Shown piece by piece: positions 36,001 to 39,000 of a DNA stretch of 64,000 nt (position 1 is the stretch's first letter; every line of letters starts with the position of its first letter). A program made the position numbers. The stretch is from Candidatus Babelota bacterium (GTDB lineage: Bacteria > Babelota > Babeliae > Babelales > Vermiphilaceae), in contig JBMOLF010000007.1 of the NCBI GenBank assembly GCA_049325595.1, positions 32,001 through 96,000 of the forward strand. The letters are read 5' to 3'.

Positions 36001-39000
36001 GATATTCAATAGTATTAGTTTTAGGCGCAGTAAGCTCGTAACTCATATTTTTAGCATTTACAATTACCATATAAAAAAATGTTCTTTGACGGTAATCAGA
36101 AATGGCAAAAGAAACTTTTTTGGTCTCATGATCTAGCTCACCACTAATTTTGCGACCTGCACAATATACCCGAACATCAGGTACTTTTTTTAAGGTTAAT
36201 GGGAATTGAATAGTGCCACTAAAAACGGTTTTTTCAATAAAACTCAATGAGTTTTGAACATACAAGAGGGTAAAAATTATAAAGAATAGTTTTTTCATGA
36301 AGCCTCTTATCGGTCGGTTTTTTGCAATAGCCAAATAGATAACTATAGATTAGAATATATAAAAAAATGGTTTTTTCAAAAAACCTAACTAAATGAACAA
36401 AAAATGAAAATAATTGCCCAAAATAAAAAAGCTTTTCACGATTATCATATTCTCAATACTATCGAAGCAGGAATTGTGCTTACTGGTGATGAGGTAAAAT
36501 CGTTACGGTTAGGCCATGTTGCCTTAGTAGGTTCTTTTGCAACAGTGCATCAGGGGGAGCTCTACTTAATTAATTGTAAAATTACTCCTTATGCTAAAGC
36601 ATACCAGGTAAAAGATGAGCAGGCTTCAACACGTAGTCGCAAACTGTTGTTGCACAAACGTGAACTTACCAAACTTATTGGAGATATTGCCAAAAAAGGA
36701 ATTACGATTGTTCCTTTAAAACTATATTTTAATAATAAGAATTTGGTTAAAGTTGAACTTGGCATTGCAAAGCACAAAAAAACTACCGATAAAAAATCTG
36801 AACTTAAAGAACGCGATATTAAGCGCGAAACATCGCGTGAATTGCGCGGGAAAATAAGATTTTAATAGATTTCTCATGTTTAGTCAGAAATAATTGAATT
36901 ATTAATCGAATTAATGGTTAAAACAGCTCGATTTATTGACTGATATACCAATTGAAAGTAATCTTATTTATAAGTATTTGAAATGTATGGGGGCGTAATT
37001 GGCTTCGACGTGTTATTGTTGGCTTTAAGAGCATGCCGAGCGTTGGCTAAGTGCTCGTAAAACAATTGGTCAAAAAGAAATGCAAACGCATTTGAATCTG
37101 CTCCAGCTTTTGCGTAAGTAAAACTGGCTAGCAACTTGTTAACTGGGCGTGTCTATCAGTTTGGTTAACACGTATTAGACCAGATAGAACTGATTATGCA
37201 AGATTACATGCTTGTGTAGCATAATTGAGTACACTCAAGCATCTTAGTAGCAATGCTCTGTCTTTGAGGTAGCTACTACGTATATTCAAAGAATAAGCGT
37301 GTAGGGCTTAAGGTCTTTGATAGTGCGGACATGGGTTCGACTCCCATCGCCTCCACCATGCTTCGTTCTACGAACTACGCATGGCGCAGCCATAAAATGA
37401 CTTTGATAACGAAGCATGCCCTGCGTAGCTTGCCAAGCCGGTAGGCCTGGATAAGCGTAGCATGGGCCAAATTAATAAACTAAACACAATTAGTTCTTCG
37501 TTCTACGAACTACGCATAGTCTTAAAATTACACTTCAGAGTTTTTTATTTAAAAATATATGTATTTTGTATATTTGCTCAAATCAATTAATTTTTCTAAT
37601 CAAACATACATTGGATACACTACCGATATTCAAAATCGTTTGATAACACATAATAATGGTGGGTCGCCACATACAGCTAAATATAAGCCTTGGAAATTAC
37701 ACGCCTATTTTGCATTTGAAGATAAATATGTAGCGCTTAAATTTGAGCAATATTTAAAATCACATGCAGGAAAAGCATTTGCCAATAAAAGGTTATGGTA
37801 AACCGCACAAGGCTTCATCTGGTATCCTGCATGTTAAAACTTCGCAGGACAAGAGCCAGCTTCTTTAACGGTATAACTCAAAAATCTGAGAAAATATTTA
37901 ATAGCAAGAAGTGAAGTATGTCCTTCGTAGCTCGCAGAGCATAGTAGGACGACAAGTTATCTTTTCAAATGATCAGATAAACTTCTTTTTGTATCTCTGC
38001 AAAGTTGACAGAGTATTCATGTTCTAGCTATGTTTATGGCTATCAATATATCTTTTTAAAAGGAGCTCAACATGAAAAAAATAATAGTGTTAACAATAGC
38101 TATGATAACTTCGGTGTCATATGTTCGCGCGGAAGTTGAAGGTAAAATAAATAACGTTATAGAACGTTTAACGCCAGCGGTAAATGCACGATCATTAGCA
38201 CGTGATGCTGCTTATATCGCTACCAAATCATGTCCCAATTCAGGATCGGTACAAACACCATTGGGTACCGTAGAATCAGCAGATGTTGCTCGCTATTTAG
38301 TAGCGGTAATTTTACATGCGCAAAATATTAAAGGTGCGGTTGCAACAGTGGCTCAACAAGCGTTAGAAGATTTAGGTATGTTTGGTTTTAATACCGTAAA
38401 TAGTTCGATATCTCAGGCTACTCAGCAAATTAAATTAAATTGTTTATCTAACTTTGTTCGTAAAGTAAATGCACTTTTTGCAAAAGATAGTTTTGGTAAC
38501 TATGTTGTTCGCTGGTTATTGCGAGCAAAAACTCAAGAGTTTGTTAATTCAAGTAATGTAAAATCAGTTAATCGTAAATAATTTAATTTTAGAAAATACT
38601 AAAAAGGACTTGCCCTAAAGGCAGGTCCTCTTTTTTATTAGAAATAATAGCAATTGCCATACTTTTAATTATTTGTATACTGCTTTCCATTAATATTTTT
38701 CTAATTTGATTTTCAAAAAGGATTTTCCATGGTTAAGATCACGCATGCAATGTTACTGGCATTTTGTTTTTCTACTGTTATGAGGGCCAGCATTATTGAT
38801 GATGCAAAAAAACATGCTGATTTTAAAGTGACCAAAGAAAATGCTCAGGGTGAAGGCCGTTTACATTTGCAAATGATTGATATTATAAGAAAAGCTTTGA
38901 CTGAATCTGTTGAATGCTTGAAAAAAGCTTATCGAGAAAAAAGAGAAGAAATCCAAAAAAATGATTTGTTTAATCAATGTGATAGTGCTACCGAATCATG

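Follow-up and report, generated by a model that had tools for sequence, protein, structure and literature searches.

Tags of Babelales tmRNAs have moved away from the ClpX-type end in a phylum without ClpX, ClpP and HslV, with Lon as their putative main reader

To our knowledge, bacteria are usually taken to have ClpP almost without exception, the Mollicutes being the textbook case of its absence. In the canonical ssrA system, ClpX binds a tag that ends in Leu-Ala-Ala, and in E. coli FtsH and Tsp/Prc are minor routes beside ClpXP; Tsp/Prc of E. coli prefers non-polar C-termini. For the degron-protease pair of Mesoplasma, a low-micromolar KM and a strict need for the Phe and the terminal Ala are reported. 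Mycoplasma has no ClpXP, and its tag, which ends in NYAFA, is described as being read by Lon (PMC9382460). In the account of M. pneumoniae given in PMC8403727, depletion of Lon stabilises tagged proteins and depletion of FtsH does not, an effect of Lon that is ascribed there to recognition of accessible hydrophobic regions, and the same source cites work in which ssrA-tagged proteins of E. coli are substrates of FtsH. The Mycoplasma tag is 27 residues long, and its upstream part is reported to add to Lon binding (PMC10695633).

Here, we describe a tmRNA gene from a Babelales genome (1.286 Mb in 24 contigs, 94.96% complete). ARAGORN, Rfam and Pfam place an smpB-ssrA pair in the window, by which we mean the whole 64-kb stretch of DNA that was analysed, with smpB immediately upstream of ssrA on the same strand:

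36404..36865, + strand: smpB, the protein partner of tmRNA; 153-aa ORF, Pfam PF01668 (SmpB) 178.1 bits, profile positions 1-142 of 143
36989..37358, + strand: ssrA, one-piece tmRNA gene; ARAGORN, and Rfam RF00023 at 149.7 bits, E 5.3e-60
36989..36995, + strand: acceptor stem, 5' strand; GGGGGCG, pairs with CGCCTCC at 37348-37354
37082..37117, + strand: tag reading frame; resume codon GCA 37082-37084, 11 codons, stop TAA 37115-37117; coding part 94-129 of the gene in ARAGORN
37106..37114, + strand: codons of the putative C-terminal degron, GCT TTT GCG (Ala-Phe-Ala), read from the sequence
37348..37358, + strand: acceptor stem, 3' strand, and encoded ACCA end, read from the sequence; RF00023 positions up to 374

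The gene covers the whole RF00023 model (positions 1-374, not truncated) at a score far above the gathering score of 47, and it has the acceptor stem of a one-piece tmRNA, with the G3.U alanine identity pair (G36991 opposite T37352) and an ACCA 3' end encoded at 37355-37358, together with a tag frame and an SmpB partner. The resume codon at 37082 aligns to the Rfam consensus resume codon, and its context, AATAA[A/G]T directly before GCA, is conserved across 140 related tmRNA genes. Translated from there, the tag is the 11-residue peptide ANAFESAPAFA, as the survey's finding had given it; two further tags quoted in that finding were recovered again, in genomes G117 and G100. A scan for promoters and terminators around ssrA was uninformative: promoter-like sites numbered 6 where 6.6 were expected, and terminator-like sites 1 where 0.8 were expected.

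Set beside the canonical ssrA-ClpXP-SspB system, the locus shares the tmRNA architecture, the GCA resume codon, a polar N-terminal part of the tag (AN.., AE.. or AD..) and the terminal Ala, but it has a bulky hydrophobic residue where the canonical tag has its penultimate Ala, and Ala in place of Leu at position -3. The window's tag ends in neither Leu-Ala-Ala nor Val-Ala-Ala, and neither ClpX and ClpP nor HslV or SspB were found in its genome: the best model match reached 22.5 bits for clpX (cut-off 370.75) and 18.7 bits for clpP (cut-off 308.6), a profile search returned no HslV, and PF04386 at E<=1 returned no SspB adaptor, which is the proteobacterial form. The genome does encode two full-length Lon proteins (TIGR00763, 910.4 and 883.9 bits, positions 1-795), 44% identical to each other and each with visible LonA motifs and full-length matches to solved LonA structures, as well as one true copy of FtsH (749.3 bits), ClpB and an S41 protease (272.5 bits). 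The two Lon genes lie on different contigs, at C23:11500-13947 and C22:18017-20377. The protease inventory reported by the survey, with two Lon, FtsH and ClpB and without clpP, clpX or HslV, was thereby confirmed.

The survey had also reported ClpP to be absent from 41 Babelales genomes, and this absence extends much further. Across 261 species genomes of the phylum, 189 of them high-quality, ClpX was found in none (E<=1e-15; 0/189 in the high-quality set), and no canonical ClpP was found in any. Matches to the ClpP fold (PF00574) occurred in 15 of the 261 genomes, 12 of them weak and partial (25-35 bits) on SppA-like frames and three of them moderate (102-110 bits). Two of the moderate matches proved to be phage head-maturation proteases (NF045542, 194.7 and 140.5 bits, cut-off 120), one of which is flanked by a terminase-like frame and an HK97 capsid gene, and the third is a ClpP-fold protein below threshold (80.3 bits, cut-off 249). 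HslV was matched in one genome of the 261, by a sequence truncated by a contig end that scored 145.1 bits, under its cut-off. The source genome is itself somewhat short of complete and divided among contigs, and one might suppose that ClpXP was missed there through assembly gaps or excess divergence. We consider this chance negligible: the phylum-wide absences include 27 assemblies listed as single contigs, G250 from the same genus as the source and 26 others, and the same searches recovered ClpP (297-355 bits) with an adjacent ClpX in 7/7 outgroup genomes and, among 50 additional outgroup genomes, mostly metagenome assemblies, detected ClpP in 48, for a total of 55/57 genomes from other bacteria. 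The phylum has lost ClpX, ClpP and HslV. Since it is without the protease that reads the usual tag, a different protease must handle the tag here.

The proteases that remain are widespread. Lon is present in 260 of the 261 phylum genomes and in at least two copies in 245, as counted from the table of matches, and a Lon tree separates the copies into two well-supported clades (SH-aLRT 100 and 98), with one copy per clade in all 15 genomes from which both copies were fetched (7 families). By this tree and these counts, the two Lon paralogues are ancient and present nearly phylum-wide, the divergent clade B having arisen either through duplication inside the phylum or through transfer, so that the "duplicated Lon" of the earlier account, understood as a recent duplication tied to the source genome, does not stand. 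FtsH is found in 143 of 151 genomes of the order and in 123 of the 125 high-quality ones.

We then compared the tag ends themselves, in a census of 141 tags called from 139 genomes of the order. Tags were called uniformly from the aligned resume codon, in agreement with the ARAGORN frame in 111/141; ARAGORN alone gave no call for 21 and another frame for 9, mostly long tags. The baseline was 41 tags from other bacteria obtained with the same pipeline, for which a motif scan of contigs yielded tmRNA genes at 7 of 120 loci and the rest were used to reach other genomes. In the order, the C-terminal residue is Ala in 126/141 tags and position -3 is Ala in 96. The penultimate position holds, among others, F (45 tags), V (23), Y (13) or L (11), and 67 tags end in Ala-hydrophobic-Ala and 93 in x-hydrophobic-Ala. 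The commonest end, with 37/141 tags from 10 of the 21 families, is -AFA. A single tag ends in -LAA, as against 34/41 in the baseline, where 37/41 tags end in -AA and no tag has F, Y, L or I as its penultimate residue and one has V. Restricting the census to the 111 ARAGORN-confirmed tags left the picture as it was, with 105 ending in Ala, 34 in -AFA and one in -LAA. Tag length in the order has a median of 16 residues and ranges from 7 to 49; plausible baseline tags, as read off the tag lists, are 9-14 residues long. The proposed switch to an -AFA end therefore stands in part: -AFA is the most frequent end and -LAA has nearly vanished, but -AFA is not the rule, what is conserved being the wider Ala-hydrophobic-Ala pattern, and 28/141 tags still end in -AA (21 -AAA, 4 -VAA). 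From the absence of ClpXP and from these tag ends relative to the baseline, we conclude that the degron of the order has moved away from ClpX, in parallel to that of Mycoplasma.

The codons beneath this motif bear on whether the peptide is under selection at all. The 37 -AFA tags are encoded by 11 distinct 9-mers, with the Phe codon divided between TTC (19) and TTT (18) and all four Ala codons in use at the last position. Because synonymous codons vary under a fixed peptide, conservation appears to act on the peptide, and by this comparison of sequences the Ala-hydrophobic-Ala motif is conserved, not drifting. It is very improbable, in our estimation, that the tag is no longer a degron and that ribosome release is all that counts, with the tag end set by RNA structure or termination constraints. 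Such an arrangement would accord with M. pneumoniae, where tagging for degradation is described as non-essential and ribosome release as the essential role of tmRNA (PMC8403727), so that selection on the degron could be weak, and in the Rfam alignment the last tag codons do lie within a tmRNA helix. However, 11 different 9-mers for one peptide end argue against it, as does the recurrence of hydrophobic ends and of long hydrophobic tags in separate lineages, and since the partner strand of the helix can co-vary, the amino acid is not dictated by RNA pairing. Part of the terminal conservation could nevertheless reflect the helix that holds the last codons, or termination efficiency.

We propose instead, as the reading that on balance is somewhat favoured, that ANAFESAPAFA is still a degron, in which Ala-hydrophobic-Ala replaced Leu-Ala-Ala after the loss of ClpXP and HslV, and that Lon is its main reader. 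At a stalled ribosome, alanyl-tmRNA would enter the A site, translation would resume at GCA 37082, and the nascent chain would gain the tag, whose Ala-bulky hydrophobic-Ala-COOH end would take the place of the ClpX-bound Leu-Ala-Ala, replaced because the whole phylum lost ClpX, ClpP and HslV. Tagged products would then be unfolded and degraded by the remaining ATP-dependent proteases, most likely by Lon, which recognises exposed hydrophobic or aromatic segments, through either or both of the ancient paralogues. The membrane-bound FtsH and, in the periplasm, the tail-specific S41 protease are candidate, probably secondary, readers.

This proposal leans on analogy with Mycoplasma, and the survey's parallel with that system agrees with the case as PMC9382460 and PMC8403727 describe it. 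Both systems lack ClpXP and are left with Lon and FtsH as AAA+ proteases, both keep an intact smpB and ssrA, and in both the end of the tag is -AFA in place of -LAA, with an enrichment of aromatic or hydrophobic residues (PMC9382460, PMC8403727). Against the NYAFA of Mesoplasma (PMC9382460), the window's PAFA matches in the last three residues and has Pro rather than Tyr at position -4. The analogy is incomplete because the window's tag has 11 residues and the Mycoplasma tag 27, with an upstream part that adds to Lon binding. Moreover, the end varies within the Babelales lineage (-AFA, -AVA, -VYA, -ALA, -AAA), and this lineage has two ancient Lon paralogues rather than one. As the phylum is unrelated to Mycoplasma, its tag end would have originated independently.

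Tags of a different kind also occur in the order: 20 of the 141, unexpectedly, are 31-46 residues long and contain a hydrophobic stretch of transmembrane-like character with a cluster of Arg/Lys after it. No tmRNA tag with such a helix and basic cluster was found in the literature searched. Could FtsH, then, rather than Lon, be the main reader, a membrane AAA+ metalloprotease that recognises a non-polar C-terminus and to which long hydrophobic tags bring proteins at the membrane? The near-ubiquity of FtsH in the order, the strong match of the source genome's own copy, the activity of the E. coli enzyme on ssrA-tagged proteins noted above and the 20 long tags all speak in its favour, as do an expansion of ATP-dependent Zn proteases reported in the Babela genome paper (PMC4378268) and the 2-4 FtsH matches in many genomes of the order. 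Yet in the only system studied so far that lacks ClpXP and has a similar -AFA end, it was depletion of Lon, not of FtsH, that stabilised tagged proteins (PMC8403727). FtsH copy number among genomes of the order also shows no clear pattern with transmembrane-like tags, for relatives in family f6 whose tags lack the stretch have 4 copies and G067, whose tag has it, has 1, and the window's own tag is without a hydrophobic stretch. We regard FtsH as main reader as quite unlikely.

A further explanation would assign the tag no dedicated reader: after the loss of ClpXP it would have kept only a generic non-polar end, Lon, FtsH, the S41 tail-specific protease and peptidases would clear it slowly and with redundancy, and the likeness to Mycoplasma would be a shared default rather than a specific switch. 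The tags show 42 different last-three-residue combinations among 141, hydrophobic ends are described as general among tags (PMC4131195), and -AAA and -VAA ends persist; the 28 -AA ends would suit ClpX, yet there is no ClpX, and therefore the C-terminus may be read with low specificity. The source genome has counterparts of both FtsH and Tsp/Prc of E. coli, the latter in its S41 protease, and the Ala-hydrophobic-Ala end is non-polar, although what are minor routes beside ClpXP in E. coli would here have to be major ones. A default of this kind sits poorly with the positional conservation of Ala at the terminus and at position -3, with a clear preference for Phe (45/141) that is wholly absent from the baseline, and with the synonymous codon variation under a fixed peptide, and we judge it unlikely, if still worth weighing. 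Lon as main reader of a conserved degron is the account we retain, and we infer it from the tag ends, the protease inventory and the Mycoplasma case together.

More speculatively, we suggest that after the phylum-wide loss of ClpXP and HslUV the Babelales/Dependentiae may have arrived at a new ssrA degradation signal by several routes. One would be the short Ala-hydrophobic-Ala end, of an origin independent of Mycoplasma and read by one specialised ancient Lon paralogue. The other would be the tags of 31-46 residues, of no fewer than 2 lineages and probably of 4-5, which combine a transmembrane-like helix with an Arg/Lys cluster, acidic residues and a short non-polar end and would serve as a membrane anchor for FtsH or as an exaggerated hydrophobic degron for Lon. 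This extended scheme is possible but doubtful.

Within the literature searched, nothing linked Dependentiae to ClpP loss or discussed their tmRNA tags. The results presented here add to the bacteria without ClpP, ClpX and HslV an entire phylum, whose members live as intracellular parasites in protists, and the ssrA tags of this phylum, having converged on a Mycoplasma-like end, make a second, independent natural experiment on the co-evolution of degron and protease. Synthetic biology already uses the Mesoplasma degron-protease pair for orthogonal degradation (PMC9382460), and the two Lon lineages, with the 141 tag variants that nature provides, could be tested as new pairs of this kind. If the long hydrophobic tags are real degrons, they would be a new solution for the disposal of failed proteins.

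The smpB-ssrA module in the window is intact. ARAGORN and Rfam RF00023 agree on the coordinates of the one tmRNA gene that ARAGORN called, the latter over the full, untruncated model (149.7 bits, E 5.3e-60; gathering score 47), and the tag that ARAGORN reads from it is ANAFESAPAFA, so that both the gene and the tag given in the survey's finding stand. The classical arrangement of smpB and ssrA makes the module look functional, and its parts are as follows.

36404-36865, + strand: smpB, a 153-aa ORF directly upstream of ssrA (SmpB, 178.1 bits)
36989-37358, + strand: ssrA, one-piece tmRNA gene (ARAGORN; Rfam RF00023)
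36989-36995 paired with 37348-37354, + strand: tmRNA acceptor stem, with a G3.U pair and ACCA after the stem
37082-37084, + strand: resume codon GCA, where translation of the tag starts (from the sequence; aligned with the Rfam consensus resume codon)
37115-37117, + strand: tag stop codon TAA (from the sequence)

Just 3' of ssrA, an exact 22-base direct repeat with a small hairpin inside (37361-37382 and 37496-37517) encloses a 113-base stretch richer in G+C; it has six genome copies at up to 2 mismatches, compared with none for a reversed-pattern control. Farther downstream on the + strand lie an 80-aa stand-alone GIY-YIG nuclease-domain ORF (37559-37801; 54.5 bits) and two genes ordinary for the phylum, encoding an ankyrin-repeat protein (39198-40016) and a P-type cation ATPase (40095-42782).

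ClpXP and HslUV are absent. In the window's own genome (1.286 Mb in 24 contigs, 94.96% complete), the clpP model (cut-off 308.6) reached no more than 18.7 bits, for an SppA-like frame, the clpX model (cut-off 370.75) no more than 22.5 bits, for other AAA proteins, and neither HslV nor SspB had any match. Among 261 species genomes of the phylum Babelota, ClpX was found in none at E<=1e-15, including the 189 of high quality, and HslV in one, at a score below the cut-off and in a gene cut by a contig end. The ClpP Pfam domain matched in 15 of the 261, 12 times partially (25-35 bits), always on SppA-like frames and with our own genome among the 12, and three times moderately (102-110 bits). Of these three, the matches in two related genomes, G197 and G133, were rejected as phage head-maturation proteases (NF045542, 194.7 and 140.5 bits; cut-off 120), the G197 gene being flanked by a terminase-like frame on one side and an HK97 major capsid gene on the other. 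The third, in G119, adjoins a LexA-like gene; its best ClpP model gave 80.3 bits, where the cut-off is 249, and its contig is short, one of 300 in the assembly. That ClpXP is present and was simply missed has a negligible probability in our judgment: 27 of the 261 assemblies, one of them from the same genus (G250), are single contigs, and missing data are therefore no explanation. The survey's claim of a genome devoid of ClpP and ClpX, and of a Babelales sample devoid of ClpP, thus holds and is widened to the phylum. Separately, the phage-like gene sets of G197 (locus L046, contig C34) and G133 (L048, contig C10), in which a terminase-like frame and an HK97 major capsid gene accompany the ClpP-related head-maturation protease, occur in a phylum reported to be poor in phage genes; the G197 assembly is 2.4 Mb in size and 3% contaminated, so its set may sit on a foreign contig.

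A tmRNA was found in all 151 genomes of the order Babelales and exceeded the cut-off in 141, the other 10, whose matches were all sub-threshold, being excluded from the tag set. The window and 30 + 112 related loci gave 143 sequences, two of them truncated and without a tag; with two tmRNA genes each in G038 and G050, this left 141 tags from 139 genomes. Because ARAGORN failed or picked odd frames in many long genes, tags were called uniformly from the aligned resume codon, in the conserved context AATAA[A/G]T directly before GCA, except that ARAGORN's tag was kept for G150, where the gene contains an N. The two procedures gave identical tags in 99 cases and the same frame with a later ARAGORN start in 12; ARAGORN made no call in 21 and used another frame in 9. 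The two full-length genes of G050 (C1:795232-795599 and 797383-797822; L072 and L097) lie 2 kb apart and encode different tags, of 13 and 33 residues, and those of G038 are on separate contigs of an assembly with 5% contamination.

Order tags have a median length of 16 residues (range 7-49) and carry a new C-terminal motif that is conserved at the peptide level. The last residue is Ala in 126 of the 141, the penultimate one is F in 45, A in 34, V in 23, Y in 13, L in 11 and C in 6, and position -3 is Ala in 96; 67 tags end in Ala-hydrophobic-Ala and 93 in x-hydrophobic-Ala. By last three residues, AFA (37) precedes AAA (21), AVA (12), ALA (7), VYA (6), ACA (5), VAA (4) and LAA (1). The -AFA end of the window tag, to which the survey had drawn attention, is hence the commonest single end, present in 10 of 21 families, in 6 of 15 tags of the window's own family and as -PAFA in nine tags, but it is not universal. 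The picture is the same when the 111 tags that share ARAGORN's frame are taken alone: Ala closes 105 of them, -AFA 34 and -LAA one. The 37 -AFA ends are encoded by 11 distinct 9-mers; across these ends Phe is TTC 19 times and TTT 18 times, and the last Ala uses all four codons. Conservation is thus of the peptide rather than the RNA. That such a tag would have no degron function seems to us very improbable.

Other bacteria provided a baseline. Scanning the species collection for a tmRNA motif gave 120 loci, just seven of them tmRNA genes; all seven tags end in -ALAA, and all seven genomes have ClpP (297-355 bits) with an adjoining ClpX, one cut by a contig end. Fifty chance loci from the scan served as handles to further genomes, selected by record title and leaving out archaea, alphaproteobacteria (whose two-piece tmRNA falls outside the model's coverage) and a few others: 42 of the 50 had a tmRNA above the cut-off, 48 had ClpP at E<=1e-40, and ARAGORN called 34 of 40 tmRNA loci fetched. 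The 41 baseline tags end in -LAA (34), -MAA (2), -VAA (1) and -LVA (1), with three obviously wrong frames. In this sample, which is not strictly random and in which related genomes are not independent, -AA ends make up 37 of 41 tags versus 28 of 141 in Babelales, and -LAA ends 34 of 41 versus 1 of 141, a very large contrast.

A distinct class of long tags occurs in related genomes: 20 of the 141 tags, with lengths of 31-46 residues, contain a 17-residue window with a Kyte-Doolittle mean of at least 1.6; at least two Arg/Lys come next, then as a rule acidic residues, and the end is short and non-polar. They belong to families f6 (11, e.g., L129 in G118), f3 (5, e.g., L108 in G130), f17 (3, e.g., L074 in G088) and f1 (1, L156 in G067), with 16 loci besides these four examples. 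Most are missed or misframed by ARAGORN. Their frame appears real, given that the resume frame is open in 20/20, with stops in 19/20 for both the +1 and +2 frames, and that same-length pairs show 49 substitutions at third, 34 at first and 24 at second codon positions. The tmRNA tree, computed with the tag columns left out, requires five state changes for the class, at least two of them forced by well-supported branches, and none of 500 label shuffles gave so few. The class has thus been repeatedly gained or lost, occupying at least two and probably five places on the tree.

The proteases remaining in the window's genome include two full-length Lon genes (910.4 and 883.9 bits), one true FtsH (749.3 bits) and an S41 C-terminal processing protease (272.5 bits). 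Further AAA+ frames are ClpB, YifB, a 928-aa FtsH-like protein whose match to the FtsH model is limited to the ATPase part, and six small orphan AAA ATPases of FtsH/PAN/CDC48 type (~320-440 aa); no protease domain is recognisable in the orphans or the 928-aa protein (C12:13114-15960, three in tandem; C9:20254-20823; C1:117857-118072; C11:1108-1512; C15:206190-207074). FtsH is found at E<=1e-120 in 143 of 151 order genomes, with 1-4 copies each. Many order genomes (families f2, f3, f5, f11, f16 and f18; e.g., G033:C1:814226-815605 and G029:C13:124991-126385) also have a second FtsH form of ~880-980 aa that matches the model only from ~130 to 598, indicating a long novel N-terminal extension.

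Lon is found at E<=1e-100 in 260 of 261 phylum genomes, with at least two copies in 245, one in 15 and none in G078 (64% complete), higher numbers being lower bounds since three candidates were scored per genome. Both of our copies align from end to end with solved LonA structures. In a tree of 42 sequences from 27 genomes and seven outgroup sequences (one outgroup row, on a very long branch, is to be ignored), clade A (23 rows, SH-aLRT 100) holds the copy on contig C23 and clade B (19 rows, SH-aLRT 98, stem length 0.71) that on C22; each of the 15 genomes (seven families) for which both copies were fetched has one in either clade. Clade A also joins the Lon of two outgroup clpP-clpX-lon operons (SH-aLRT 100). 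These results make the paralogy ancient, possibly older than the phylum; alternatively, clade B could have an origin of its own. The duplicated Lon of the survey is thus real as two genes, but is an old, nearly phylum-wide pair. All 23 clade-A rows, including our own (L010), have a Lys/Arg-rich C-terminal tail (7-17 K/R in the last 30 residues, against 1-7 in clade B), which may be a candidate binder of nucleic acid, ribosomes or acidic lipids.

We propose that the tag would still be a degron, read by Lon A, Lon B or FtsH, plus the S41 protease for exported chains, and we lean towards Lon as the main reader, drawing on Mycoplasma, the closest studied case. Like the window genome, Mycoplasma combines absence of ClpXP with an -AFA tag end; according to passages of the published accounts, its NYAFA end is read by Lon (PMC9382460; PMC10695633), and in M. 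pneumoniae an NYA mutation blocks degradation of tagged proteins, which are stabilised by depletion of Lon but not of FtsH (PMC8403727). The same source also stresses that Lon prefers hydrophobic and aromatic stretches that are exposed, a preference that fits both the -AFA end and the long hydrophobic tags. Against Lon count the shortness of the window tag, the variability of tag ends across the order, and the known, minor part that FtsH plays as a reader in E. coli (work cited in PMC8403727). Redundant, low-specificity reading of such tags we consider unlikely; FtsH as the main reader, for which the E. coli role speaks and against which the M. pneumoniae depletion stands, appears to us somewhat less probable still. 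The long tags could act as membrane anchors handing substrates to FtsH, or as very strong hydrophobic Lon degrons. Lon is kept in all long-tag genomes, with two copies in 18 of 20 (G131 is the one long-tag genome listed with a single copy, and G113 is named beside it), and FtsH copy number among order genomes has no clear link with the class.

In the main texts of openly available papers, literature searches pairing Dependentiae with ClpP or tmRNA, and TM6/Babela with Lon, returned nothing that reports the loss or describes the tags, and neither searches on transmembrane or hydrophobic tmRNA tags nor PMC4131195 gave a precedent for the long hydrophobic class; in the portions covered, the Chromulinavorax, TM6 comparative and Babela papers give tmRNA and Lon merely as present. 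Babelales would represent a lineage that lacks ClpXP and whose ssrA degron has been retargeted, the central mechanistic claim being one that we infer, and as such are of clear interest to the fields of proteolysis and trans-translation.
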